A stretch of DNA of 64,000 nucleotides from Candidatus Anderseniibacteriota bacterium (GTDB taxonomy: Bacteria; Patescibacteriota; JAUYIX01), in NCBI GenBank assembly GCA_046350855.1, contig JAXLZM010000002.1, positions 78,103 to 142,102 of the forward strand, read 5' to 3'. Positions 255 through 44,084 of this stretch are shown here, one piece after another; the stretch's first letter is position 1, and every line of letters starts with the position of its first letter. The notes beneath the pieces are model-generated. The model ran no database searches. It had not been told where the DNA came from and saw only the letters and a list, made by a program, of their open reading frames with translations. A program made the translations under genes and the position numbers.

Positions 255-1466
255 CTAACGAGAGTGCTTAGATTTTTTGAGCAGTCCGACAACCTGCGCC
301 AACTTTTCCACCGTCTGATCGAGTAGGGCTTGAGTTGTGCTCCGTCCCAGGGTGAACCGCACACTGCCGTGTGCCCGCGTGTAGGGGAGGCCAAGTGCAA
401 GGACCACGTGGGAGGGCTCGATACTGTGCGAGTCGCAGGTGGATCCCGTCGCCGCAGCCACACCGAGTTCGTCCAGCATGCTGATGATCGAATCGCCCTC
501 GATGCCTGGGATCGTGATGTGAATATTGTTGGGTAGGCGCTGCGTGGGGTGGCCGGTGAATTGGGCCTCGGGGACTGCCGTGAAGATCTTTTTAATGGTT
601 GCGTCGCGGAGTTTTGTCTGGCGAGCTGATTCAGTAACGCGGTCGGCTTCGGCCAACTCGAGGGATTTGGCAAAACCGACGATAGCAGCGACATTTTCCG
701 TGCCGGCGCGACGGTTGTCTTCTTGTGAGCCACCCACAATGAGGGGTTCGACTTGCACTCCACGCTCGGCAAGTTTTTTGCTGACGTACAAGAGCCCCAC
801 ACCTTTTGGCCCATACATCTTGCTGCCATTGAGCGTCATGAGATCGACGCCGAGCTCGCCCACAGCGAGTGGGAGCGCACCGGCCGCTTGGCAGGCGTCG
901 GTGTGGAACGGCACCTTGTGCTTGCGTGCAATGGCGGCCAGCTCGGTGATGGGTTCAACCGTGCCGACCTCGTTGTTGGCATACATGATCGAAATCAAAA
1001 TCGTTTTGTCGATGATGGCGGCCTCGAGCGTTTTGGGATCAACCAAGCCGGTGGCGTCGACCGGGAGGCGCGTCACGGCAAACCCCCAGCTCTCGAGCCG
1101 ATCGACCGCGCGCAAAACCGCTTTGTGTTCGATGGCCGAGACGATGACGTGGTTGCCGCGATTGGCCTTGCGCGCCGCCTGCGCGATGCCAAAGATCGCC
1201 ATGTTGTCGGACTCGGTGCCGGATCCGGTAAACATGAGTTCTTCTGGTGTGACGGATCCCGTGGCAGAACCACTCAAAATCTTTGCGATGCTCGCCCGAG
1301 CGGTATCGAGCGCCTGCTTAGCGGTTCGTCCCTCCTTATAGAGTGCGGATGGATTGCCAAACTCGGCGCCAAGGTATGGCTGCATCGCTACAAGAACGCG
1401 CGGGTCGAGGGGAGTGGTGGCGGCATGGTCGAGATAGATGCGCTCGGTGCGCGAAACGTTCTTCAT
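255..1466 (-). CDS. Cysteine desulfurase family protein (class V aminotransferase, NifS/IscS-like)
   Basis: 403-aa ORF. N-terminus 'IYLDHAATTP', PLP-lysine region 'LNGSKMYGPKGVGLLYV', C-terminal 'RFTLGR' typical of NifS/IscS desulfurases. Transcribed divergently from the DGR target gene. Confidence 0.8.
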   Translation of the reverse strand: MKNVSRTERIYLDHAATTPLDPRVLVAMQPYLGAEFGNPSALYKEGRTAKQALDTARASIAKILSGSATGSVTPEELMFTGSGTESDNMAIFGIAQAARKANRGNHVIVSAIEHKAVLRAVDRLESWGFAVTRLPVDATGLVDPKTLEAAIIDKTILISIMYANNEVGTVEPITELAAIARKHKVPFHTDACQAAGALPLAVGELGVDLMTLNGSKMYGPKGVGLLYVSKKLAERGVQVEPLIVGGSQEDNRRAGTENVAAIVGFAKSLELAEADRVTESARQTKLRDATIKKIFTAVPEAQFTGHPTQRLPNNIHITIPGIEGDSIISMLDELGVAAATGSTCDSHSIEPSHVVLALGLPYTRAHGSVRFTLGRSTTQALLDQTVEKLAQVVGLLKKSKHSR

Positions 1467-1548
1467 AAATCCGCTTAGCTGTAGCGTTTTTTTGGCTGAA
1501 CGTCAACTATATAGCCATCCGGGGTTAGTTGTTCTACGATTCAGGATT

Positions 1549-3441
1549 ATGCCAGGAGAACGCCCCGGACCAGGCCCAGAATTTTTAGGAGAAAAATACC
1601 AAGACCTGCCTGGTTCTAAACCGGTAGAGCGTGCCGTACAAAAAGAGCTACGCTCCGGCAAGCCCGGACCGACCACTAAAGAGGGTCGCATCGAATCGTA
1701 CCTGGGACGTCTCGAGCGCATCACCGAGGATGAGCGCGGCTATGAGCTCCTCAAAAATAAGCTCCTCAACAAATTTACAATCAATCTCGACGACACCGAG
1801 CTCGTTGACCGTATCGCCCACGGCCTCTACGAATCCGAGAAAAAGCTCGCCATCGAGCAAGGCCGCGGCGCAGATATCCGTCGCTTTGAGTCCGAGCAAA
1901 ACGTGGTCGAGCACTACAAACCGCTCGTCAAAGAAAAAGCCGAGATCCAGCAACGCACGCTCTCCAATTGGCTCGATTATCTCCAGCGCAACGACGCCAA
2001 ACAGCCCATGAGTTTTAGGTACTTTGTCGTACGCAGCCTCGAAAAAATGGGTCAGTTCGACAAAGAGCGCGGCCAGTACAGCAAACGCACGATCACCACC
2101 GTCGCGCCTTTTCCGGAGCTCAACTCCGAGGCACTTGGTTGGGTCTATCAGCGGCTCACCAAAGGTCTTGATCCGGACGAACAATACGACCCAGCGCAAA
2201 AAGCTGAGCTACAAAAACTCATCAAATCAAAAGACTTTGCCAAATTGTACGCCCATGCCCAAATCGAGACCGCCGGCAAACTCAACCGCGAATCACTCGA
2301 TGGAACCTGGAAAAAATATGACAAGGGTAGCGACTGGCGCACACTTGAGCATGATCTCAAAAACAAAGGTACCGGTTGGTGCACGGCCGAGGGCAGCGCC
2401 AAACCGCACCTGGCCGGCGGTGACTTTTTTGTCTATTACACCAAGGGTAAGGAGGGCAAGTACACCGAGCCGCGCGTCGCTATCCGCATGGAGGGCGACC
2501 ACATCGGTGAGGTCAGAGGTGTAGGGGCCAGGCAGGAGGTAGAACCGGCTCTTGTCGACGCAGCGCAGGCTAAGTACCACAAACTCCCGGGTGGCGAATC
2601 CTACGATAAAAAAGCCCACGACATGAAATACATGACCGCCCTTACCAAAAAACAGGCCGAGGGCAAACCCCTTACGGGACCAGACCTCAGATTCTTGTAC
2701 GAGCTCGACGCTCCGATCGAGAGCTTTGGGTACGATAAAGATCCTCGTGTCGCTGAGACTCGTAAAGGACGCGACGTTGAACAAGATATGTTGGCGGTTT
2801 TTGATGCGACGCCAGAGCAAATTGCACACCAAACGAGCGAGGTGCGTTCTGATACCAAGGCCTATGTCGGAAAATTAGAGCCGGGTGTTTTTGAGCTGCT
2901 CAGTAAATATCCTACAATTGAGCATATCTACACGAGCTTTCCAGAAAAGCCCATCCGCATCGAGCGACTTGAGACTGGTGGCAAAACCGCTGACCAGTAC
3001 ATCAAACTGCTCGAGGCGCAGGGTCACAAGATTTACGACTACGCCCTGGATATGCTCAAGAGTAAGGACTTTAAACCAGCCACCCAGGCGCAAAATCTCG
3101 AACTCGTACGACTCTCGGTCGGTGATCTTATGTTGCCTGAGGACCGTCAAAGGGGGTACCTCACTACGGATGAACTCTATAAGCGTGCAGACAGCTTTGG
3201 GTTGGACCTTGCTCCCGCCGAAACGGGCCCCGAACTCCGTCTCAAACTCAAAAACCAGCCAGTCGGTGAATACGTCTATGTAGGCATGAAGCCTATAACC
3301 GTTCGCGACGGCAATCCGAGCGTCTTCTGCGTCGAGCGCGGTGAGGATGGGTCCTGGCTCCAGCGGCGACGATGCCGGGCCCGTCAACTCGTGGGGTCCC
3401 GACCATCAGATCGTGTTCCGTCTCCGCAAGTAGCTTTGTGA
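1549..3441 (+). CDS. DGR target protein (variable protein). Large N-terminal domain of unknown function, C-terminal C-type-lectin-fold variable region. Frame as assembled is disrupted near the 3' end.
   Basis: ATG at 1549 lies in the divergent promoter region shared with the desulfurase gene. The C-terminal ~42 codons match the TR at 4894–5019 (− strand), mismatching only at TR adenines. With the 1-nt VR insertion removed, the C-terminus reads 'GNPSVFCVERGEDGSWLSGDDAGPVNSWGPDHQIVFRLRK*' (stop TAG 3431–3433), which fits the CLec-fold DGR VR consensus (GSW…N…FRLR). No signal peptide was seen. Confidence 0.85.
   Translation: MPGERPGPGPEFLGEKYQDLPGSKPVERAVQKELRSGKPGPTTKEGRIESYLGRLERITEDERGYELLKNKLLNKFTINLDDTELVDRIAHGLYESEKKLAIEQGRGADIRRFESEQNVVEHYKPLVKEKAEIQQRTLSNWLDYLQRNDAKQPMSFRYFVVRSLEKMGQFDKERGQYSKRTITTVAPFPELNSEALGWVYQRLTKGLDPDEQYDPAQKAELQKLIKSKDFAKLYAHAQIETAGKLNRESLDGTWKKYDKGSDWRTLEHDLKNKGTGWCTAEGSAKPHLAGGDFFVYYTKGKEGKYTEPRVAIRMEGDHIGEVRGVGARQEVEPALVDAAQAKYHKLPGGESYDKKAHDMKYMTALTKKQAEGKPLTGPDLRFLYELDAPIESFGYDKDPRVAETRKGRDVEQDMLAVFDATPEQIAHQTSEVRSDTKAYVGKLEPGVFELLSKYPTIEHIYTSFPEKPIRIERLETGGKTADQYIKLLEAQGHKIYDYALDMLKSKDFKPATQAQNLELVRLSVGDLMLPEDRQRGYLTTDELYKRADSFGLDLAPAETGPELRLKLKNQPVGEYVYVGMKPITVRDGNPSVFCVERGEDGSWLQRRRCRARQLVGSRPSDRVPSPQVAL
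3304..3429 (+). repeat. DGR variable repeat (VR) at the 3' end of the target gene
   Basis: About 126–127 nt homologous to the reverse complement of 4894–5019. About 18 substitutions, all at positions that are A in the TR sense strand. One extra C after 'ggctc' (about 3361). Ends in the shared GC-rich 'gttccgtctccgcaa'. Confidence 0.85.
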
Positions 3442-3442
3442 T

Positions 3443-4282
3443 TTAGAAGTTTTTGACATTTGGACTCTTAGGCTCTTTGGTACTTTGTCGTCTCGCAATT
3501 TGCTGATCTAAGCGATGTGCCAGTTTATACGTATTACCGTGGCTCAATAATCCGCGGTAAGACGCGATGGTCCCGGTGGAGTAGTTTTCTTGCAGTCGCT
3601 TTACGATTCTACGTTTTGTCGACGTGCGTAATACGCGGTGGCCTGGAAAATGTACCCAACCTAAAAAATCAACACCCGAGGCCAGCGTGGTGATAGATAA
3701 TTTGCGCGGGTGCAGTGATAATTTGAGACGCGTAGTAAGAAATCTTGCGATTTTAGGTATGAGTTGCTGTAGATACTCATACTCGCTACTCAGTATCACA
3801 AAGTCATCTGCATAGCGTACGTAATGCCGTGCCCTCAGTGTTCTTTTGATGTACGCATCTAGTTCGTGCATGTATATATTGATGAGGAGTTGGCTCGTTA
3901 CGTTACCAAGCGGCAGCCCGATCCCGGGCCTGTCAGTAGTGTGGAAACTCGTAATGACTCGCTCAAAAAGCCAAAGGACATGTTCATCCATAATGGACTT
4001 GCGCAAGAGTGCCATGAGCGTAGCTTGATCGATCGAGGCAAAAAACTTTTGTATGTCACATTTGAGCACCCAACACGTACGCGTATTGTTGCGCGAGACT
4101 TTACGCGCGAATGCTCTAAATCGGTTGAGCGCGCGGTGGGTACCTTTATTACGCCGACAAGAAAAAGCATCAAATAAAAATATGTGATCAAAATATGGAT
4201 AGAGTTGACGATAAATCGCGTGATGCACGACTCGGTCGCGCACCGTTGCCTTGTGGATGTCGCGCGGTTTTGGATCACTCAC
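3443..4282 (-). CDS. DGR reverse transcriptase. The ORF as called starts at GTG 4282; the conserved N-terminal domain continues in frame upstream to ~4480 with no start codon.
   Basis: Motifs 'FRDRVVHHA'-like 'VRDRVVHHAIY', 'SCRRNKGTH', the DGR-specific motif-4 variant 'LPLGNVTSQ' ([IL]GxxxSQ), catalytic 'YVRYADDFVIL', and 'GVDFLGW'. The upstream in-frame translation 'SFDSIISLDNLLESWRAFARGKRHRQDVARFSLQLIDNLLALHGDLKTGSYQHGPYHHFKVSDPKPRD' matches the conserved DGR RT N-terminus. Confidence 0.9.
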   Translation of the reverse strand: MSDPKPRDIHKATVRDRVVHHAIYRQLYPYFDHIFLFDAFSCRRNKGTHRALNRFRAFARKVSRNNTRTCWVLKCDIQKFFASIDQATLMALLRKSIMDEHVLWLFERVITSFHTTDRPGIGLPLGNVTSQLLINIYMHELDAYIKRTLRARHYVRYADDFVILSSEYEYLQQLIPKIARFLTTRLKLSLHPRKLSITTLASGVDFLGWVHFPGHRVLRTSTKRRIVKRLQENYSTGTIASYRGLLSHGNTYKLAHRLDQQIARRQSTKEPKSPNVKNF

Positions 4283-4475
4283 TTTAAAATGATGGTACGG
4301 ACCATGCTGGTACGAGCCAGTCTTTAGATCACCGTGGAGCGCTAGTAGATTGTCAATTAACTGCAGCGAAAAGCGTGCAACGTCTTGTCGATGTCGCTTA
4401 CCTCGTGCGAATGCCCTCCAAGATTCCAGGAGATTGTCTAAAGAGATGATAGAATCAAAACTTACATGAGTAAAA

Positions 4476-4514
<39 letters not shown>

Positions 4515-4527
4515 AAACGCGACCATT

Positions 4528-4875
4528 TTGCATCGGCTGCGAGAGGCGTACCTGGCCTGGTCCGCGGTTCTGCCGCACATAGCTAAGTCTGCTCGGTACG
4601 GGATCGGTGCCCGCATCGATAATCGTTTTTTGAGTCTGTTGGAGCGTACGCATGTGACGTATTTTAGCGCACGTGCACTGCGCGGCGAAAAAATTGCAAA
4701 CTGCATTGTTGAACTCGATACGCTCAAGTTTTTACTAGCAACGGCCTGGGAGGCTAAGCATATTTCTAATCACCAGTACGAGTTAGTGGCACTAAAACTA
4801 GAAGAAGTAGGTAAGATGTTTGGCGGTTGGAAAAAATCGCTCGCCACTAGTAATAAAAACCGCACGCTTTGGTAG
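4528..4875 (+). CDS. avd: Avd-like accessory variability determinant (four-helix-bundle / 23S rRNA IVS-protein family)
   Basis: 115 aa, basic. C-terminal 'LDTLKFLLATAWEAKHISNHQYELVALKLEEVGKMFGGWKKSL' follows the Avd/IVS four-helix-bundle pattern (compare Avd '…HQVETAQVLIAEVGRILGSWI…'). TTG start. Encoded divergently from RT, between RT and TR. Confidence 0.75.
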   Translation: MHRLREAYLAWSAVLPHIAKSARYGIGARIDNRFLSLLERTHVTYFSARALRGEKIANCIVELDTLKFLLATAWEAKHISNHQYELVALKLEEVGKMFGGWKKSLATSNKNRTLW

Positions 4876-4893
4876 GTGCGGAAAAGAGCCAGT

Positions 4894-5019
4894 TGCGGAG
4901 ACGGAACACGATCTGATTGTCGGGATTCCACTTGTTGTCGGGCTTGGCATTGTTGCTGTTGAGCCAGGACCCATCCTCATTGCGCTTGACGTTGAAGACG
5001 CTCGGATTGCCGTCTCGAT
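4894..5019 (-). repeat. DGR template repeat (TR), sense on the minus strand
   Basis: The reverse complement aligns with VR 3304–3429. It is adenine-rich in AAC/AAT codon positions ('aacagcaacaatgccaagcccgacaacaagtggaatcccgacaat'). Translated in the VR frame it gives 'GNPSVFNVKRNEDGSWLNSNNAKPDNKWNPDNQIVFRLRN'. A 6-bp-stem hairpin (4861–4882) lies immediately 3' of it on the minus strand. Confidence 0.85.
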
Positions 5020-5328
5020 CGGTTTGTACGATGTGCCATCCGTAACACTGCTTGCGCAGCAAAACAGCAGATCAAAGCGCCAAGCTGTATTGATTGCGTG
5101 ATCAAAAATCAGCCAGCACATCGCACCAAGTAGTTCTTTTTTAATGAGCTAGACACGGGTCCTCCGCAGATAGCCTTGACCATCCACGTTCTCAATCCAT
5201 GGTAGTCAATTTAGTCTCGCAAAGCCGTAACCGTACGATACGACTAAATCGGTTGAATTGTAGCAAAAAGGTCTTGACGTTCCGCCCGATCCTCAATATA
5301 GTACCAATCTAGTCTACTTACGCTCAAT

Positions 5329-5772
5329 TTGGTGTTACGCATCGGTCGGCTAACGGATTACGGCATCGATTTACTCACGCTTTTTGTGGACCCGCGCGAG
5401 CCGCTCGGCGTGCAAGGGATTTCTGCGACGGAACTGGCTCGACGCTCAGGTGTGCCGCTCCCGACCGTCAGCAAAATCTGCAAGCTCCTCACTAAAGCCG
5501 AGTTGCTTGTCGCCAGTCGTGGCAAAACCGGCGGGTATCGGTTGGCGCGCGATCCGAGTGAGATTTCGGTCGCCGATGTCGTGCGAGCACTGGAGGGTCC
5601 GATCGCACTGACGGCCTGTGTGGCCGATCCTGGGAGTTGCGCTCTCGAAGACAGTTGCGGAACGCGCACCAACTGGCAACGGATCAACCAGCACGTTTTT
5701 GCGTCGCTCGAGTCGGTCAAGATTTCTGAGATGCGAAGTCCTGTTCGGCATAAAAAGTTCGCCCATGTCTAA
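5329..5772 (+). CDS. Rrf2-family transcriptional regulator (IscR/SufR-like, Cys-containing)
   Basis: N-terminal HTH 'GISATELARRSGVPLPTVSKICKLL' and a Cys cluster 'CVADPGSCALEDSC'. Immediately upstream of sufB. Confidence 0.85.
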   Translation: MVLRIGRLTDYGIDLLTLFVDPREPLGVQGISATELARRSGVPLPTVSKICKLLTKAELLVASRGKTGGYRLARDPSEISVADVVRALEGPIALTACVADPGSCALEDSCGTRTNWQRINQHVFASLESVKISEMRSPVRHKKFAHV

Positions 5773-8272
5773 GACAACGCTCCAGCAACTCAGTACGCAG
5801 CCATATAAGTATGGTTTTTCGAGTAAGATCGCGACGGACACCGTGCCGGTCGGTCTTAACGAAGACATTATCCGCATGATCTCTACTAAAAAGCACGAAC
5901 CAGCCTGGCTTCTCGAGTGGCGTCTGCGAGCTTTTAAGTTTTGGCAGACGCTCACACCGCCGACCTGGCAAAATGTCGAGTTCCCCGCCATCGACTACCA
6001 GGCCATTCGTTACTACGCCGCTCCCAAGCGCCGCGCTCTCAAGAGTCTCGACCAAGTTGATCCGGAGATTCGACGCATGTTCGACAAGCTTGGTATCTCA
6101 CTGGACGAACAAAAACGTATCAGTGGTGTTGCCATGGACGCCGTGGTTGATAGCGCCTCGGTTGCGACCACTTTTAGTAAGGAACTCGCACGCCTCGGCA
6201 TTATTTTTTGCAGCTTGAGCGAAGCCGTGCAAAAACATCCCGATCTCGTACGCAAAAATCTCGGCACAGTTGTATCGTTTGGCGACAATTACTTTGCCAG
6301 CCTCAACGCGGCGGTCTTCAGCGACGGCTCGTTCTGCTATATCCCCAAAGGCGTGCGCTGTCCCATGGAGCTTTCGACGTATTTCCGCATCAACTCGGCG
6401 GGCACCGGTCAGTTTGAGCGGACGCTTATTATTGCGGAAGATGATGCGTACGTAAGTTATCTAGAGGGCTGCTTGCCAGGTGATGAGGAGGTCTCTTGTG
6501 GAGATCAAATCAAAACAATCCGGGACATTGAGGTCGGCAGTGACGTCGTCAATCATGAGGGAGAGCAAGCGCAGGTTGGAAAGATAATGCGAAGAGGTTA
6601 TGACGGCGAAATGTTTGAAATTACACCGCGTAGTCCGGGAAATGCATTTAGAATAACGTCAGAACATCCTGTTTTGTCTATCAAACGTGAATTAGTGCAG
6701 CGCTCAGTGAGGCCTGAAGGAAGATGGAGCGATATTGATCAGGCTAAGCTGGAAAAAACTCAACCGACCTTTACTCCCGCGAAGGACTTAACGGAAGGAG
6801 ATCTACTCGTATTTCCGGTTAATAAGATTGAAAAGAACGACTCGACATTGAGTGACGACTTCCTCAAATTATTGGGTTATTACATTGCAGAGGGGTGCTC
6901 GACAAAATTCAATGGATATAACGCGACTGAATTCTCTTTGGGTGATCACGAAGCAGACCTAATCGATGAGGTTTGCGAATTAATTGAAAAAATCACGGGT
7001 AAGCGCCCATCTTGCTCGCATGATGTACGTAAGCACGGAATGTACATCGTTACATACGACAAAGACCTTTTTGCCAAGTTACTCGAACATGGTGGAAAAT
7101 ATGCGCTTTACAAGAAAATGAGTAAGACGATTATGGAGTTGCCGCCGCAAAGACAAAAACTTTTGATTGAAACGTATTACAAGGGCGATGGCTCTCGATC
7201 AAAGGAAGGAAGTTTAACGCGAGTTCGGGCCGCAACAATATCGAGAAACCTGGCATTCCAGATGCAAGAATTACTTGCGCGACAGGGAATCTTCGCCTAC
7301 ATGAATACGCGCGAAGCATTCTCAGAACGCATGAAGGACGGACATTTTATTCACCATAAAAAACGGTACGTTCTGTTTTATGCAGAAAACACTCGTAGCA
7401 GACGGGCGATTCGTAAAGAAGATTACTTTTTGGTGCCAATTAAGAGCGTCAGCAAAAAGCGCTTTAGAGGTTTTGTATATAACTTTGAAACTAAACAGGA
7501 GCCCCATTCATATTTGGTAAAGGGCTTTGCGGTTCATAACTGTACGGCGCCTCGTCGTGATGAAAACCAACTGCACGCGGCCGTGGTTGAGTTAGTCGCG
7601 AAAGATCGCGCAGAAATTAAGTACGCCACGGTCCAAAACTGGTATCCCGGCGACGCCGACGGCAAGGGCGGCATTTACAACTTTGTTACCAAGCGCGGCA
7701 AGTGCCAGGGTAAAAACAGCAAGATTAGCTGGACGCAGGTTGAAACCGGTTCTGCCATTACCTGGAAATATCCGAGCGTGATTTTATTTGGCGACAACTC
7801 GGTGGGCGAATTTTACTCGGTAGCCCTGACCGCCAACCGCCAGCAAGCCGACACCGGCAGCAAGATGACGCACATCGGCAAAAACACGCGCAGCACGATT
7901 ATTTCTAAGGGGATCGCGGCCGGCCACGGGCGCAACACCTATCGCGGGTTGGTGCGCATCATGAGTACCGCCACGGGTGCCCACAATTACACCCAGTGCG
8001 ACTCGCTCATGCTGGGCGAGCACTGTCAGGCTACGACTCTGCCGTATATCGAGCAGCGTAACGACACCTCGACCATCGAGCACGAGGCCAGTACCGCCAC
8101 CATTCGGGATGAACAGCTGGTTTATTTGCGCCAGCGTGGCATCGCCGAAGAAGAAGCGGTCAGCATGATCGTCAATGGTTTTGGCAAGACGGTTTTTAAA
8201 CGCTTGCCGCTTGAGTTTGCCGTGGAAGCCCGAAACTTACTCAGCCTACGACTAGAAGGGAGCATCGCCTAA
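5765..8272 (+). CDS. sufB: Fe-S cluster assembly protein SufB, interrupted by an in-frame intein
   Basis: Extein sequences '…IIAEDDAYVSYLEG' and 'CTAPRRDENQLHAAVVELV…' flank a 357-aa insertion. C-terminal extein 'GHGRNTYRGLVRI…CDSLMLGE' is typical SufB. Extein length is about 478 aa. Confidence 0.9.
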   Translation: MSKTTLQQLSTQPYKYGFSSKIATDTVPVGLNEDIIRMISTKKHEPAWLLEWRLRAFKFWQTLTPPTWQNVEFPAIDYQAIRYYAAPKRRALKSLDQVDPEIRRMFDKLGISLDEQKRISGVAMDAVVDSASVATTFSKELARLGIIFCSLSEAVQKHPDLVRKNLGTVVSFGDNYFASLNAAVFSDGSFCYIPKGVRCPMELSTYFRINSAGTGQFERTLIIAEDDAYVSYLEGCLPGDEEVSCGDQIKTIRDIEVGSDVVNHEGEQAQVGKIMRRGYDGEMFEITPRSPGNAFRITSEHPVLSIKRELVQRSVRPEGRWSDIDQAKLEKTQPTFTPAKDLTEGDLLVFPVNKIEKNDSTLSDDFLKLLGYYIAEGCSTKFNGYNATEFSLGDHEADLIDEVCELIEKITGKRPSCSHDVRKHGMYIVTYDKDLFAKLLEHGGKYALYKKMSKTIMELPPQRQKLLIETYYKGDGSRSKEGSLTRVRAATISRNLAFQMQELLARQGIFAYMNTREAFSERMKDGHFIHHKKRYVLFYAENTRSRRAIRKEDYFLVPIKSVSKKRFRGFVYNFETKQEPHSYLVKGFAVHNCTAPRRDENQLHAAVVELVAKDRAEIKYATVQNWYPGDADGKGGIYNFVTKRGKCQGKNSKISWTQVETGSAITWKYPSVILFGDNSVGEFYSVALTANRQQADTGSKMTHIGKNTRSTIISKGIAAGHGRNTYRGLVRIMSTATGAHNYTQCDSLMLGEHCQATTLPYIEQRNDTSTIEHEASTATIRDEQLVYLRQRGIAEEEAVSMIVNGFGKTVFKRLPLEFAVEARNLLSLRLEGSIA
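6470..7540 (+). mobile_element. Intein with LAGLIDADG homing-endonuclease domain inside sufB
   Basis: Starts with Cys1 ('CLPGDEEV'). Block B 'RITSEHPVLS'. LAGLIDADG-like motifs 'KLLGYYIAEGCS' and 'LIETYYKGDGSRS'. C-terminal blocks 'FVYNFETKQEPHSYLVKGFAVHN' ending His-Asn, followed by +1 Cys (7541). Confidence 0.85.
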
Positions 8273-8281
8273 CGCACCACC

Positions 8282-8986
8282 ATGTCAAAAAACGTACTCT
8301 CGATAAAAAACCTACACGTAGCACGCCAAGATAAAGAAATTCTTAAAGGAATTTCTTTGGAGGTTGGTGCGGGCGAGTTACACGTGCTGCTCGGACCTAA
8401 TGGTTCTGGCAAAAGCACACTCGCAGCCGTCTTAGCAGGTGATCCGCGCTACAAAGTGACTCAAGGATCCGTCACGCTCGACGGTAAAGACTTTTTAGCA
8501 CTCTCTCCAGAGCAGCGGGCGCTCAGCGGAGTTTTTATTGGGTTCCAACACCCGGTCGAGGTCCCCGGACTCAGTACAGCACAGTTTTTACGTGCCGCGC
8601 TTAACGCCAAGCGCGCCGCAGCCAAACTAGCCCCCTTAGGAGCTGCAGAATTCTTAACCCAAGCCAAAAATGCGCTGCACGAAGTTGGTCTAGTCGAATC
8701 AACCCTCGAGCGCGCCGTCAACGTCGGCTTCTCGGGCGGCGAAAAAAAGCGCCTCGAACTCGCACAGCTGCTCCTGCTCCAGCCTCGTTTTGCAATTCTC
8801 GATGAGATCGACTCGGGCATCGATGTCGATGGACTCAACTCGATCGCGGCCAGTCTCGAGCGGTTCTACCAAAAGGGTGGCGGGCTGCTCGTTATCACCC
8901 ACAACCCGCGCCTGGTTGAACAACTCAAAGTCGCCAAAGTGCACACCGTGCAATCCGGCCACGTGGCAGAACAGGAACCGTCATGA
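8282..8986 (+). CDS. sufC: Fe-S cluster assembly ATPase SufC
   Basis: Walker A 'GPNGSGKSTL', ABC signature 'FSGGEKKR', Walker B 'LLLLQPRFAILDEIDSGID'. Confidence 0.9.
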   Translation: MSKNVLSIKNLHVARQDKEILKGISLEVGAGELHVLLGPNGSGKSTLAAVLAGDPRYKVTQGSVTLDGKDFLALSPEQRALSGVFIGFQHPVEVPGLSTAQFLRAALNAKRAAAKLAPLGAAEFLTQAKNALHEVGLVESTLERAVNVGFSGGEKKRLELAQLLLLQPRFAILDEIDSGIDVDGLNSIAASLERFYQKGGGLLVITHNPRLVEQLKVAKVHTVQSGHVAEQEPS

Positions 8987-10119
8987 AAACCCTCGAAATC
9001 AAACCAGCGCAACTCCCCACAAAAAAGCTCGAGGAGTGGCGCTATACCGATGTGAGTGCATTGGCGGCAACCTACACGCTGCCGCCCATAACGCCAGCAC
9101 GTAGTAATAGTGCCGCAGGGGAGAACAACGTACTTTTTGTTGATGGACTACTGGTCAGCAAAAACCTGCCCAAAGGCGTCACTATTTCCAAACAAACCGC
9201 TGCCACATCACAGCCTGATGCCAACGCAATCGCTGCTGTAACCCCTGCCACTTTTTTTGAACAACTCGGCTCCAATGTTCCCGGCTACAAGCTAACAATC
9301 TCCGCCGGTCTTACACTCGCTGAACCATTGGTCGTTTGCTATCAGCAAAAAACGAGCGGTACCTTGGTTCGACCACGCTTGGCCATCACGATTGGCAAAG
9401 GAGCTGCGATAAAACTGATTGAGCGTGTCGAGGATCAACCAGATACAAAGCTGCTCGCAACCACGAGCGTCACCATCGATCTTGCGCAAGATGCACGGCT
9501 CGCCCACCAGATAGAGCAAATCGGATCGAGTGCCGCCGCACATATTCAATCACGCATCGTCACGCTCAAAAAAAATGCCAATTACGATTTGACCCTGCTC
9601 TCCTGGGGCGCAACCCTTGGCCGACAGTCGCTCAAAGTACAGCTCACTGAGCCGGGCGCCCAGGCTGACTTGCGTGGTGTCTACATTGCACGCGCCACGA
9701 CCCAGAGCGATTACCAAATCGAAGTCGACCACCAAGCGCCTGAGACCAGTTCGAGCCAATCATTTAGAGGAACGGTCTCTGGCACGGGCAAAGCCGTCTT
9801 TAGCGGCAAGATTATTGTCAGGCCCGAAGCAAAAAATGCGCGCGCGCATCAACTCAATAAAACGTTGCTGCTGGATACGACCGCGCAGATGTTCACCCGG
9901 CCACAATTGCAAATCGAAACCGACAAAGTGCGCTGCAGTCACGGGGCCAGCATCGGACGGATTAGTGCCGAGTCACTTTTTTATCTGACTAGTCGCGGGC
10001 TAACACCTGAGCTAGCACGCAAGCAGCTCGTTGGAGCTTTTTTACGAGCTGATCTATCTGGTGTCTTACTCGCCGATACTTTGCCGATCGTAGACGCCCA
10101 GATTGCGAGGGGCGTATGA
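8983..10119 (+). CDS. sufD: Fe-S cluster assembly protein SufD
   Basis: 378 aa, overlaps the sufC stop by 4 nt. C-terminal 'ETDKVRCSHGASIGRISAESLFYLTSRGL' is typical of the SufB/SufD family. Confidence 0.8.
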   Translation: MKTLEIKPAQLPTKKLEEWRYTDVSALAATYTLPPITPARSNSAAGENNVLFVDGLLVSKNLPKGVTISKQTAATSQPDANAIAAVTPATFFEQLGSNVPGYKLTISAGLTLAEPLVVCYQQKTSGTLVRPRLAITIGKGAAIKLIERVEDQPDTKLLATTSVTIDLAQDARLAHQIEQIGSSAAAHIQSRIVTLKKNANYDLTLLSWGATLGRQSLKVQLTEPGAQADLRGVYIARATTQSDYQIEVDHQAPETSSSQSFRGTVSGTGKAVFSGKIIVRPEAKNARAHQLNKTLLLDTTAQMFTRPQLQIETDKVRCSHGASIGRISAESLFYLTSRGLTPELARKQLVGAFLRADLSGVLLADTLPIVDAQIARGV

Positions 10120-11354
10120 ACCAGGTACCCTTCCAGCGCGCAGATTTCCCAATCCTAGCCACCAAAGTCAGCGGTACACCGCTGGTGTATCTCGACAACG
10201 CGGCCACCAGTCAAAAACCGCGTGCAGTCCTCACAGCCGAGGCTAATTTTTATGAACACAACAACGCTAACGTGCATCGTGGCGTGCATGCTCTGAGTGT
10301 GCGTGCGACCAAAGCATACGAGGCAGCTCGTCAAACGGTGCAGCGTTTTATCGGTGCTGCGGACTCGCGCGAAATTATTTTTACGCGCGGCACCACCGAC
10401 TCTCTCAACTTTTTGGCAGACTCACTTGGATCCACATTCAAACCAGGCGATGAGATCGTTATTTCTGCCCTCGAACATCATTCCAATATCGTTCCGTGGC
10501 AGGTCATCGCTAAAAAAACCGGGGCCAAGCTTATCGTTTGGTCATTGCCCCTCTCGCTATCTGGCCTCAAATCACTTCTCAACGAGCACACAAAAATCGT
10601 TGCGATCGCGCATGTTTCTAACGTCCTCGGAACGGTTCTGCCAGTAAAAAAGATTGCCGATCTTGCGCACAAATACAACGCTCAGCTGATCGTCGACGGA
10701 GCACAAGCGGTTGGTCACCTACCCGTGGATGTCCAAGCACTCGACGCAGATTATTACGTTTTCTCGGGTCACAAAGTATACGGACCGACGGGTATCGGCG
10801 TTTTGTACGGCAGGTTGCGGCTCTTGGAGCACCTCTCACCCTATCAAACTGGGGGAGATATGGTTGCTACGGTTTCGTTTACTAACACGACCTATGCCGA
10901 ATTGCCCGCACGACTTGAGGCCGGGACTCCCAATGTTGCTGGTGCGGTCGGACTCGCTGCAGCCCTCGAGTACATCAACGCAAACGGCATCAACACAATC
11001 GCCAAGCACGAGTACACTCTGACAGAACAAGCGCGTATCAAACTCTCACACATCGCGGGCGTCAAATTGGTCGAACTACCAGACGGCAAACTATCCGCAG
11101 GCACCCTGTCCACAACCGGCATCGCCTCGTTTGTTGTCGAGGGCGTGCACCCACATGATCTGGGAACACTTCTTGATCAAGAAGGTGTTGCGATCCGGAC
11201 AGGCCTACTCTGCGCAGAACCACTCATCCGAGCCCTCGGCTACGACGCGGTTTGTCGCGCATCCTTTGCTGGTTACAACACCGAGGCCGACGTCGACGCC
11301 TTGGTCAGCGCGGTTCAAAAAGCCATTACAAAACTCGCACCAAAAACAAAATGA
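10116..11354 (+). CDS. sufS: Cysteine desulfurase SufS
   Basis: 'FSGHKVYGPTGIGVLYG' PLP-lysine motif and 'RTGLLCAEPL' active-site Cys loop. 4-nt overlap with sufD. Confidence 0.9.
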   Translation: MNQVPFQRADFPILATKVSGTPLVYLDNAATSQKPRAVLTAEANFYEHNNANVHRGVHALSVRATKAYEAARQTVQRFIGAADSREIIFTRGTTDSLNFLADSLGSTFKPGDEIVISALEHHSNIVPWQVIAKKTGAKLIVWSLPLSLSGLKSLLNEHTKIVAIAHVSNVLGTVLPVKKIADLAHKYNAQLIVDGAQAVGHLPVDVQALDADYYVFSGHKVYGPTGIGVLYGRLRLLEHLSPYQTGGDMVATVSFTNTTYAELPARLEAGTPNVAGAVGLAAALEYINANGINTIAKHEYTLTEQARIKLSHIAGVKLVELPDGKLSAGTLSTTGIASFVVEGVHPHDLGTLLDQEGVAIRTGLLCAEPLIRALGYDAVCRASFAGYNTEADVDALVSAVQKAITKLAPKTK

Positions 11355-11806
11355 GTGACGAACTCTACCAAGAACTACTCCTCGAGCACGCCAAATCGCC
11401 TCGCAATGCGCGATCGATTGCCGATGCGCTCTCAACCGAGGAGCACAACATCCTCTGCGGCGACGCGGTTACGGTCTACGTGCAGTTGCGCGACAACAAG
11501 ATTGTCGACATCTCGTGTGTCGCACACGGCTGTGTGTTGTCTAAAGCCTCGGCTTCGCTTTTGACCGAGACGCTTAAGGACCTGTCAGTTGAACAAGCGC
11601 TCCAGGTAATTGAGTCCGTGCAACGTTCTGCCACGGGTGAACACACTGCAGAAGATCGCACCGCGCTACCCGAAGAACTAAAAGTCCTGGCAGGCGTTGC
11701 GCAGTACCCCGCCCGCGTTAAGTGCGTGACGATGGTGTGGCACGCCGCTAAAAAACTTCTCATGAGCGAACCCGCAGCAGTTCCACCACAAAATCATGCA
11801 GCTTAG
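11351..11806 (+). CDS. sufU: SufU/NifU-like Fe-S scaffold / sulfur acceptor
   Basis: Start ATG overlaps the sufS stop (ATGA). 'PRNARSIAD…HNILCGDAVTVYVQL' and 'CVAHGCVLSKASAS' are conserved Cys motifs of SufU/IscU-like proteins. Confidence 0.8.
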   Translation: MSDELYQELLLEHAKSPRNARSIADALSTEEHNILCGDAVTVYVQLRDNKIVDISCVAHGCVLSKASASLLTETLKDLSVEQALQVIESVQRSATGEHTAEDRTALPEELKVLAGVAQYPARVKCVTMVWHAAKKLLMSEPAAVPPQNHAA

Positions 11807-12350
11807 TACGCCACGCAAAGTAAAAAAGAATATTTCTGGCTGGTTGGTGCCGGCCGGCGTCCCGCAAACTCTAAAAAAAGGCACGCAGGTAGAAGTCATG
11901 CAAGCTTTGGGAGACACCATCACCCTCGCTACTGCTGATGGTCGACTGGTGCGGGTAGATGCGGAGTTCGCCCCGTGTATTGGGCTCAAAGCGAGCGACA
12001 TCAATGCGATGCCGCTACCCGAGGCGCCCAAAAACCAATCGATTGAGTCGCAAGTGCTCGACCAACTGCGGACCTGCTACGACCCTGAGATTCCGGTCAA
12101 CATCGTCGAGCTTGGTCTGATCTATAAGTACGAGATTAAGGGAACCAAAAAAACCGGCTACACAATATCGGTCACCATGACGCTCACGGCAGTAGGGTGT
12201 GGTATGGGAGAAGTCATTGCTCGAGAAATCGAAGCCAAAATCAAGCGCCTCCCGTACGTCAAAAGCTGCAAAGCGACCGTAACCTTTGACCCGCCTTGGG
12301 ATCAGAGTCGCATGTCGGAGGCGGCTCGGCTCCAGCTCGGCTTGCTCTAG
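11796..12350 (+). CDS. DUF59 (MIP18/SufT-like) Fe-S assembly protein with N-terminal extension
   Basis: C-terminal 'VLDQLRTCYDPEIPVNIVELGLIY…TMTLTAVGCGMGEVI…VTFDPPW' is the DUF59 signature. It sits last in the suf cluster. Confidence 0.7.
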   Translation: MQLSTPRKVKKNISGWLVPAGVPQTLKKGTQVEVMQALGDTITLATADGRLVRVDAEFAPCIGLKASDINAMPLPEAPKNQSIESQVLDQLRTCYDPEIPVNIVELGLIYKYEIKGTKKTGYTISVTMTLTAVGCGMGEVIAREIEAKIKRLPYVKSCKATVTFDPPWDQSRMSEAARLQLGLL

Positions 12351-42749: not shown

Positions 42750-44084
42750 TTAGCTACTCCAACCGAGCGCATGCCGCAGAAGTGTAATGTCTCGATCGTG
42801 GCGTTTTTTGTCTTTGCCACGGGCTTTGGCGGTTTCTGCAGTAAATTCCGCAATGTGGCGCTCTATAAAAGTCCGGGACTGCTCGGGCGTTAGGACTTCT
42901 TGGTCATGCAGTTCCTCAAGTGCCGCGCTGATAAATTCCATCCGCTCATCGCTATTTTTTGTCTGTAAAACACTCTTTTTCCAAACTGCGTCAAGCACTC
43001 TATCGGCTGGTTCTTTTTTGAGCTGCTCGATAAAGCGTAAAAATCGTCCGGAATGTTTTGTATCGTAGAATAAATTATCTAACCCCCGTTCAGTCTTAGT
43101 GAGCAGCTCCATTTTTTTGACTAGCTCCTCGTCCGGAATGAACTCCTCACCCTGAGATCCCTTATACAGGTAGTCCCCATATTTTCCTTCGAACAGTCGG
43201 GCACTCCCAAAGTCGATGATGGTTGTACGGAGCTGCTGATTTTCCTCATGCACCATGATGTTGCGTTCGTGTGCATCCCGATGTGCAATGCCGCTGCGAT
43301 GTAGCTGTGTAAAAGCATTCTTAGTTTGTTCGTACACGGTTGCGTCGAGTTTAAAGTTATTGCGTGCTAAAAACCCGTAAATCTCGCTGGAATTATGGCG
43401 GATAATCGCCGTTCTTTTTTCTATGTCACCGCCCGCCGGTACCGCCGAAAGCTTAAGCGTATTTTGAACTGCATCAAACAACTCATCCACACGCATGTGT
43501 TCTATATCCGTAAAAACTTTAGATGCTTGTGGGTGACGTTTGAGCACCTCACGATACATGCGCGTGGCCAGATCCTCGCCGGGCATTAATTCCATTACGA
43601 GGAGAGCAATCTTTTCTTGGTTTTTAACTCCATAGGTGCTTAATTGTTGCTGCATTTCTGGACTCAAATTAGAGAGCTCACGATAGAGGATCGGGCGCGG
43701 GATCCCGGCAATCGTAGCGGAACTTTTCTGCGCCTCAGCGATCGATTGATACGCAGCACTCTGGGCTTCAAACTCTTTCTTACCGACACTCGCCTCATAC
43801 ACTTTCAAAATTTTAATAGCCGGGGTCTCATCAAGCTCGATTCCCGTTTCTTTAAGTTTTTCCACTAACTCGGGCGGAAATTTGCCAATGTCCGCGCGAA
43901 AAATAACACCGTTATGTCCCTCGTTAATTTTTTCGACCCCGTGCAGAAGGACTTCTTCGAGACGAGCATCGATGAGACGTTCGGTCTCATTTTCTCGACT
44001 GGTGGCAGTTTTTTCAGCGGTTTGTTCACTTTGGCTTAGCCCCAGTTCTTCCGGACTCGGGCCATGCTCTGGATTTGTTGGCAT
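42750..44084 (-). CDS. Atypical protein-kinase-like protein (ePK/APH fold)
   Basis: 'PAIKILKV' (VAIK-like Lys), catalytic loop 'IAHRDAHERNIMV', 'IIDFGSA' (DFG). Long helical extensions on both sides. Confidence 0.6.
   Translation of the reverse strand: MPTNPEHGPSPEELGLSQSEQTAEKTATSRENETERLIDARLEEVLLHGVEKINEGHNGVIFRADIGKFPPELVEKLKETGIELDETPAIKILKVYEASVGKKEFEAQSAAYQSIAEAQKSSATIAGIPRPILYRELSNLSPEMQQQLSTYGVKNQEKIALLVMELMPGEDLATRMYREVLKRHPQASKVFTDIEHMRVDELFDAVQNTLKLSAVPAGGDIEKRTAIIRHNSSEIYGFLARNNFKLDATVYEQTKNAFTQLHRSGIAHRDAHERNIMVHEENQQLRTTIIDFGSARLFEGKYGDYLYKGSQGEEFIPDEELVKKMELLTKTERGLDNLFYDTKHSGRFLRFIEQLKKEPADRVLDAVWKKSVLQTKNSDERMEFISAALEELHDQEVLTPEQSRTFIERHIAEFTAETAKARGKDKKRHDRDITLLRHALGWSS

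Follow-up and report, generated by a model that had tools for sequence, protein, structure and literature searches.

A Mycobacterium tuberculosis-type SufB intein with a LAGLIDADG endonuclease domain in a candidate phyla radiation bacterium

The intein of Mycobacterium tuberculosis SufB (Pps1, Rv1461) splices experimentally, and its pathway has been set out as that of a class 1 intein (PMC8891592). In the M. tuberculosis precursor, the N-extein ends in ...GSYVHYVEG, the intein runs from CLPAGELITT to YLAYGFAVHN, and the C-extein starts with CTAPIYKSDSLH (PMC8891592 supplement), giving the junctions YVHYVEG/CLPAGE and GFAVHN/CTAPIYKS and the blocks VYNLD...GFAVHN (PMC8891592; here and below, a slash outside parentheses marks a splice junction). 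Here we describe an intein at the same site in sufB, the gene of an iron-sulfur (Fe-S) cluster assembly protein, in a 64,000-nucleotide stretch (the window) comprising positions 78,103 to 142,102 of contig JAXLZM010000002.1 (assembly GCA_046350855.1). The contig is 229 kb long and comes from a metagenome-assembled genome of 'Candidatus Andersenbacteria bacterium', a member of the candidate phyla radiation (CPR). Genomes of the CPR are known as intein hosts, and the element, which is of an ordinary and already known kind, adds a host lineage to the M. tuberculosis-type allele of the SufB intein.

Comparison of the window intein with that of M. tuberculosis by BLASTP returned 117 identities over 359 positions (33%) and covered residues 1-357 (E = 5e-57), with the M. 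tuberculosis intein represented by the 354 of its 359 residues recovered from the machine-read supplement PDF. The two elements occupy the same host protein at the same site, Y(V/L)EG/C...GFAVHN/CTAP, and both combine a HINT domain with a LAGLIDADG domain. They are alike in length (359 amino acids [aa] in M. tuberculosis vs 357 aa here), both start with CLP, end with GFAVHN, and have Cys at positions 1 and +1, and both carry an unusual VYN in block F. They differ in that only 33% of their residues are identical and in that the host of the window intein is a CPR bacterium. The exteins differ as well, as the window encodes the longer, proteobacterial type of SufB (C-extein of 243 aa, with WYPGD..GGIYNF) whereas that of M. 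tuberculosis is of the actinobacterial type (235 aa), and a neighbor-joining tree without bootstrap values placed the M. tuberculosis intein outside the clade of the window intein. We conclude that the window element is an allelic homologue of a catalogued and experimentally studied intein. A preliminary description of the window had called SufB a known intein host and proposed a comparison with catalogued SufB inteins; the identical site and the homology bear it out.

A single open reading frame (ORF; 5618..8272, plus strand) spans both splice junctions with no internal stop, and its likely start is the ATG at 5765 (Table 1). The preliminary description had drawn a 357-aa insert at 6470-7540 that splits sufB at EG/CTAP, and these bounds were exact to the base. 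When the insert was removed, the product aligned with Escherichia coli SufB (5awf_A) free of gaps (E = 1.6e-186), and the SufB equivalog PRK11814 (NCBIfam) matched the precursor (3.4e-245, 814 bits) in two stretches parted exactly at the insert. The precursor is 835 aa long, and the spliced SufB is 478 aa. The C-extein opens with CTAPRRDENQLH, and the reading frame continues from 7541 as CTAPRRDENQLHAAVV...; across the junction, YVSYLEG-CTAPRRD of the window aligns with YVSYIEG-C254-SAPVRD of E. coli. C254 of E. coli SufB is the acceptor of persulfide from SufE (PMC13228346), and because the window junction aligns with it, the +1 Cys occupies the persulfide-acceptor position. The database record lists the precursor as a 'SufD family Fe-S cluster assembly protein' and is silent on the intein.

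The insert has the composition of a class 1 intein: it is in frame, begins with Cys1, carries the T-x-x-H of block B, contains H346, H356, and N357, and is followed by a +1 Cys. In an alignment of 14 intein relatives, which was also the basis of the structural model below, residues T63, H66, V336, N338, Y348, L349, G352, F353, H356, and N357 were invariant, Cys1 was kept in every relative whose N terminus was present, and E141 and D240 were nearly invariant. Across 67 genomic loci, C1, T63, H66, H356, and N357 were each kept in all 67, E141 in 62, and D240 in 64. The starting Cys, TSEH, LLGYYIAEG, YYKGDGS, and the terminal His-Asn before a +1 Cys had all been quoted in the preliminary description as complete splicing and homing signatures; each was present, and careful alignment revealed no loss of a splicing residue.

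The central part of the insert resembles a double-motif LAGLIDADG endonuclease. LAGLIDADG_3 (Pfam) matched the insert alone in two stretches (4.8e-12), each of the two motifs closes with an acidic residue followed by Gly (E141-G and D240-G), and the motif 1 glycines G136 and G142 are invariant in the relatives. Among solved structures, the sole significant sequence match was PI-PkoII (4e-6), which aligned to intein residues 114-337. An AlphaFold2 model of the intein (mean predicted local distance difference test score 91, predicted template modeling score 0.89) has helices at residues 129-141 and 226-239, each followed by strand pairs, and thus a duplicated alpha-beta-beta-alpha-beta-beta-alpha core; the HINT fold is likewise present in the predicted structure, which aligned with solved inteins over its whole length. 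When the model was compared with the PDB by Foldseek, the best 16 matches were all endonuclease-bearing inteins (E from 8e-19 to 5e-12), including TliVMA (7qsu, 7.8e-19), PI-SceI (1.2e-16), PI-PfuI (3.9e-15), PI-PkoII (3e-14), and PhoVMA (8e-14). The free-standing endonucleases I-Tsp061I, I-DmoI, and I-SceI ranked next, with the match confined to the central domain. The solved inteins TliVMA/PhoVMA (7qsu, 7qss, 7qst), PI-SceI (1vde, 1lws), PI-PfuI (1dq3), and PI-PkoII (2cw7) thus share the two-domain fold of the window intein (E from 8e-19 to 3e-14, query template modeling scores of 0.58-0.71). They differ from it in sequence (12-16% identity), in host protein (V-ATPase, ribonucleotide reductase, or DNA polymerase), and in length, being 405-537 aa long; the window intein is without the extra DNA-recognition or stirrup elaborations that those lengths imply. 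The earlier assignment as an intein with a LAGLIDADG endonuclease domain is upheld by the invariant or near-invariant splicing residues, by LAGLIDADG_3, and by the fold match to TliVMA, PI-SceI, PI-PfuI, and PI-PkoII. The scores of PRK11814, LAGLIDADG_3, and the full-length homologues lie well outside chance expectation.

A bacterial intein-like (BIL) domain was considered and rejected, as the insert has a +1 Cys and an endonuclease domain and its host is a conserved housekeeping protein. Some results nevertheless count against assignment as a canonical intein. The Pfam model Intein_splicing matched with an E value of 8.9e-8 and 32.5 bits, below its gathering score of 35.8, and the NCBIfam models intein_Nterm and intein_Cterm gave weak matches, that of intein_Nterm falling under its cut-off. 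Block F carries Asn338 (VYNFE) where many inteins have Asp. Since Intein_splicing and intein_Nterm scored below threshold, the domain call rests on motifs, homologues, and predicted fold; Asn338 is compatible with splicing because the splicing-proficient M. tuberculosis SufB intein also has Asn here (VYNLD). We assign the insert, with high confidence, to the canonical (class 1) inteins that carry a LAGLIDADG homing endonuclease, at the M. tuberculosis SufB (Pps1) site.

Splicing of the precursor is predicted because the splicing residues are intact and because this gene is the only sufB and lies in a suf operon that is complete and otherwise normal. By the class 1 pathway (PMC8891592), transcription and translation as a single chain would give the 835-aa precursor, in which Cys1 would attack at Gly(-1) and convert the peptide bond there to a thioester. 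The N-extein would then be transferred to the +1 Cys, Asn357 would cyclise with the aid of His356 and His346 to release the intein, and an S-to-N shift would leave a normal 478-aa SufB whose junction Cys, equivalent to E. coli C254, could serve as the sulfur acceptor. The excised 357-aa protein would act as an endonuclease of the monomeric, double-motif LAGLIDADG class, with the uninterrupted sufB junction as its recognition site. Cleavage of intein-free sufB at ...TATCTnGArGGC/TGCACCGC..., which is a prediction, would be followed by repair that copies the intein in (homing).

With both catalytic acids intact, the endonuclease of the window intein is probably active. Alternatively, the element could be stranded, such that the intein still splices, the endonuclease is inactive, and the insert is retained because imprecise loss would destroy sufB. 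Endonuclease decay is seen in relatives with intact splicing blocks, one of which (P0006, Methylothermus subterraneus) has a motif 2 without GDGS and another of which (P0055, 313 aa) has lost motif 1 wholly; moreover, the catalytic acids are substituted in 3-5 of the 67 loci, and endonuclease activity is unreadable from sequence alone. The window intein, however, retains both motifs with E141 and D240 in a domain of full length that was modelled with high confidence by AlphaFold2, and its absence from 93-94% identical relatives together with its unameliorated composition points to a recent invasion, for which a functional endonuclease is expected. We therefore regard a stranded element as possible and rather unlikely.

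Relatives of the window intein are patchily distributed. Full-length homologues were found by protein search at E values down to 1e-149, and no relative above 64% identity was found among 5.8 billion proteins and 185,579 species genomes. Intein relatives were encoded by 170 of the 185,579 genomes, bacterial and archaeal, and the best 80 of these 170 matches were surveyed for taxonomy and site. The bacterial carriers were Gammaproteobacteria, mostly Steroidobacteraceae, together with Actinomycetota, Elusimicrobia, Latescibacterota, Acidobacteriota, Planctomycetia, Chloroflexi, and Peregrinibacteria; the archaeal carriers were Thermoplasmata, Methanomassiliicoccales, Nanoarchaeia, Nitrososphaerota, Aenigmatarchaeota, and Micrarchaeota. 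The C-terminal junction was found in 77 of the 80 loci, 75 of them in SufB at EG/C(T/S)AP and two in IscU. Beyond this set, a profile of the intein family matched 15,315 proteins at an E value of 1e-3 or below and 1,664 at 1e-30 or below, unrelated and multi-intein hosts included.

By percent identity and a neighbor-joining tree without support values, the window intein groups with those of proteobacterial-type SufB, to which it is 53-64% identical. Identity falls to 37-50% for inteins of the archaeal/Gram-positive type of SufB, and the M. tuberculosis intein is more distant. The closest relatives interrupt SufB in uncultivated Gammaproteobacteria, chiefly Steroidobacteraceae, and in other phyla (e.g., L002-L046 and P0001); they share with the window intein 53-64% identity over 357 residues, the site, the length of 357 aa, and exteins of the proteobacterial type. 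They differ from it in G+C content (GC), which in those inteins is 0.58-0.69 and close to that of the host, whereas the window intein has a GC of 0.44 in a host of 0.55. Because their exteins are just 63-69% identical to those of the window, none of these loci is the donor.

Almost all matches to SufB inteins in the protein database had a single splice junction, and this raised the idea of split or broken genes, which was refuted by the DNA of the 80 genomes, where nearly all loci were one intact ORF through both junctions. The single-junction entries are artefacts that stem from short contigs, error-prone assemblies, and gene calling. One locus (L001) is broken on a 1.45-Mb contig where neighbouring genes are frameshifted as well, with assembly errors the likely cause. 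Database entries for intein-bearing SufB proteins (P0002-P0069, P0070) are often fragmentary or bear the name 'SufD family protein' or 'LAGLIDADG family homing endonuclease', and IscU proteins with this type of intein are sometimes named 'SufB' by JGI.

Other sufB genes are more heavily occupied. Some archaeal and Chloroflexi genes (L048, L053, L057, and L072) contain two or three inteins, with all three in L048. In addition to EG/CTAP, a second site reads ...NIG/C...HN/S(K/A)(V/I/L)TMKYP and a third ...(V/M)R/C...HN/CDA..., the +1 Cys of the third apparently being the equivalent of E. coli C405. Three loci labelled Thermoplasmata or Methanomassiliicoccales (L032, L037, and L046) encode proteobacterial-type SufB, 64-68% identical to the window exteins, with an intein of the bacterial clade, which suggests inter-domain transfer of sufB or binning errors. 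Within the window, a search of six-frame ORF pieces of at least 50 aa with the family hidden Markov model found no second family member, and Pfam scans found no intein domains in ten large ORFs.

Close relatives of the host carry an empty site. With the spliced exteins as the query, the best 120 SufB proteins were compared, and the 835-aa protein of the window was the only one with an insert, the other 119 being 441-509 aa long. The nearest five are 94% (P0078), 93% (P0080, on an 868-kb contig), 86% (P0079), 84% (P0081), and 79% (P0082, labelled 'Parcubacteria group') identical, and all five are without the intein, reading ...SYLEGCTAP(R/K)R(D/N)ENQ... with the junction YVSYLEGCTAPRRD. At the loci of P0080 (L082/L083) and P0078 (L084), the site is unoccupied and reads YVSYLEGCTAPRRDENQ, and the operon is again Rrf2-sufBCDS-sufU with FeS_assembly_P; the DNA of L082 reads ...GTCTCGTATCTAGAAGGC/TGCACCGCTCCGCGCCGC... 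at this point. Over 600 nucleotides (nt) either side of the site, L082 and L084 are 82-84% identical to the window exteins at the DNA level.

The intein is foreign in composition. Its GC is 0.437, whereas the window as a whole has 0.545 and values of 0.53-0.56 hold for the exteins and the other operon genes. At third codon positions (GC3), its value of 0.443 lies below that of every one of 288 control windows of 357 codons drawn from 25 other ORFs of the window (mean 0.641, standard deviation 0.04, minimum 0.473; z ~ -4.9). In most Steroidobacteraceae loci, intein GC is near host GC, and a large deficit is confined to a minority that includes the window. One other ORF of the window, of 444 aa (42750-44084, minus strand), has a GC3 of 0.476, vs 0.54-0.68 in the other window ORFs, and may be another foreign gene.

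Because deviant composition is combined with absence from all close relatives, the data favour recent horizontal gain from a lower-GC donor over ancestral presence and repeated precise loss. The entry would most likely have been from an unsampled donor with proteobacterial-type SufB. An intein inherited from an ancestor and precisely lost from the sampled relatives could explain why intein clades track the type of SufB (proteobacterial vs archaeal/Gram-positive) and why the best match, at 64% identity, is no close donor. An old resident, however, would be expected to drift toward host composition, as in Steroidobacteraceae, whereas the GC3 found here is below every control, and absence from five of the five closest relatives would require several independent precise deletions; ancestral presence is accordingly improbable. 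The claim of the preliminary description that the intein marks a selfish mobile element agrees with its absence from the nearest relatives and its deviant base composition.

Recent gain has its own difficulties. The direction of change, gain here vs loss in relatives, would be read from composition only, as no donor above 64% identity was found. Further, a co-conversion tract in the exteins could not be demonstrated by a 10-codon sliding comparison with two intein-free relatives: a dip in identity just upstream of the junction was also found between the two intein-free relatives themselves, and the first 30 nt downstream contained 7 synonymous differences, compared with 2 in 30 between the relatives and approximately 5 expected, which is not significant. 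A search for a vector by tblastn in 50,697 phage and 72,556 plasmid records found just 22-27% identical inteins in unrelated genes.

The deviant composition, the nearest intein relatives in other phyla, and the source in a metagenome-assembled genome would also be compatible with a chimera of assembly or binning, in which a CPR sufB has been joined to the intein of another organism. The insertion, however, is codon-exact, in frame, and at the canonical site, and such a chimera would need two precise breakpoints, one at each splice junction. Both flanks, moreover, are of CPR type (82-84% DNA identity to L082/L084), unlike the exteins of related inteins with their 63-69% identity at the protein level, and the contig is 229 kb long. 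We consider an assembly chimera very unlikely.

Related inteins interrupt other Fe-S-related proteins. Inteins of archaeal IscU/NifU_N proteins (P0019-P0056, L075, and L078) and of the beta subunit of 2-oxoacid:ferredoxin oxidoreductase (OFOR; P0055 and P0202) are 35-40% identical to the window intein over the full length, start with CLP or CVP, end with KGFAVHN, and have a Gly before and a conserved Cys after the insertion point. They differ in host gene, and their separate clade in the neighbor-joining tree is nested within the SufB inteins, a placement suggestive of host switching. The IscU site lies between FG and C of FGC(A/T)AAIA, and after excision the product aligned free of gaps with solved archaeal IscU structures; the conserved Cys of this FGC motif is presumably a cluster ligand. 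The OFOR beta site is GIG/CGSK. Among the papers searched that mention both 'intein' and 'IscU', neither term appeared in any title or abstract.

These insertion points bear on whether the window intein could be a co-opted switch, with splicing gated by Cys1 and the +1 Cys according to their redox or Fe-S state, as has been proposed for M. tuberculosis. Topilina et al. (2015) reportedly describe a role of the homologous M. tuberculosis intein in sensing oxidative and nitrosative stress. In keeping with a switch, the +1 residue of the window is the equivalent of the persulfide acceptor C254, and the nearest non-SufB relatives sit directly before the conserved Cys of IscU (between FG and C) and a Cys of OFOR beta. 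Conserved catalytic sites, however, are usual for inteins, as splicing requires a +1 nucleophile and homing works well on conserved DNA; no sequence feature tells regulation apart from mere selfishness; close relatives manage without the intein; and a profile search found thousands of related inteins in unrelated hosts. A switch at this locus is thus doubtful. The broader idea, that the lineage has repeatedly colonised Fe-S-related proteins, with splicing tied chemically to the state of the Cys (thiol, persulfide, or metal) as a checkpoint on Fe-S assembly, is likewise improbable, and a Fe-S-specific intein lineage was rejected as a firm claim because the 15,315 profile matches span many hosts, including multi-intein viral-like proteins.

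Table 1. Positions of the sufB intein, its host gene, and neighbouring features in the window
Feature	Position	Strand	Remarks
sufB N-extein	5765..6469	+	235 codons, ...AYVSYLEG end, Gly(-1) GGC 6467-6469; SufBD_N (Pfam); E. coli SufB residues 20-253
Intein	6470..7540	+	1071 nt = 357 codons, CLPGDEE...KGFAVHN; HINT domain interrupted by LAGLIDADG homing-endonuclease domain
Cys1 (TGC)	6470..6472	+	N-S acyl shift nucleophile (predicted); Cys in 67/67 related loci
Block B, T63-S-E-H66 within ITSEH	6656..6667	+	T63 6656-6658, H66 6665-6667
LAGLIDADG endonuclease domain	6830..7405	+	Approximate bounds, intein residues ~121-312; from model secondary structure and LAGLIDADG_3
LAGLIDADG motif 1, LKLLGYYIAEG	6863..6895	+	Acidic E141 at 6890-6892
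LAGLIDADG motif 2, LIETYYKGDGS	7163..7195	+	Acidic D240 at 7187-7189
Blocks F and G, GFVYNFETKQEPHSYLVKGFAVHN	7469..7540	+	H346, penultimate H356, terminal N357; CAT AAC (His-Asn) 7535-7540
+1 Cys (TGT)	7541..7543	+	Trans-esterification nucleophile (predicted); then ACG GCG CCT (TAP); equivalent of E. coli SufB C254
sufB C-extein	7541..8272	+	243 codons + stop 8270-8272, coding to 8269; SUFBD_core 8.7e-73 (Pfam); E. coli SufB 254-494
Rrf2-family regulator gene	5329..5772	+	Pfam Rrf2 1.8e-28; directly upstream, stop overlaps sufB start
sufC	8282-8986	+	suf operon, downstream of sufB
sufD	8983-10119	+	suf operon
sufS	10116-11354	+	suf operon
NifU_N/SufU-like ORF	inside 11252-11806	+	Pfam; suf operon
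FeS_assembly_P ORF	11796-12350	+	Pfam; end of suf operon
Reverse transcriptase	3443-4282	-	RVT_1 5.9e-23
bAvd-like accessory gene	4528-4875	+	1.5e-13
667-aa ORF	1438-3441		No Pfam match; C-terminal end carries one repeat arm
139-nt inverted repeat	arms 3297-3435 and 4887-5024		

The operon around the intein is a full suf operon in a CPR host (5329-12350), in the order Rrf2, sufB, sufC, sufD, sufS, NifU_N/SufU-like, and FeS_assembly_P. The host SufB, with its WYPGD..GGIYNF insert, represents the long E. coli/proteobacterial type, but its partner carrier is SufU-like, not SufE, an arrangement that is common to related CPR genomes.

Just upstream of the suf operon lies a complete diversity-generating retroelement (DGR; 1438-5024). 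With the reverse complement of 4887-5024 as the template, 19 of the 21 mismatches between the repeat arms fall on a template A that is replaced by another base, and the pattern is therefore a signature of adenine mutagenesis. A search for direct repeats upstream found none, the repeats of the DGR being inverted. A (CT)n run of approximately 35 nt (4480-4515) between the reverse transcriptase and bAvd genes encodes poly-(Arg-Glu) within a spurious ORF when read on the opposite strand.

The result is a correct annotation rather than a discovery, and a specialist would not be surprised by it; it supplies the intein annotation that the database record is missing. As a new intein with Cys at positions 1 and +1 and predicted splicing competence, the element is possibly a minor part for protein engineering. 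The window and the L082/L084 loci form a natural pair of occupied and empty alleles, with 93-94% identical exteins, that is usable for studying homing and defining the target. The finding extends the range of the M. tuberculosis-type SufB intein to a CPR bacterium and to SufB of the proteobacterial type. Finally, the inteins of SufB, IscU, and OFOR beta, each inserted just before a conserved Cys, offer a way to examine by comparison the proposal, made for M. tuberculosis, of redox-stress sensing through SufB splicing. If the broader idea of a lineage that repeatedly colonised Fe-S-related proteins were true, the intein would be, in a streamlined CPR host, a posttranslational checkpoint on Fe-S assembly and not a purely selfish element.

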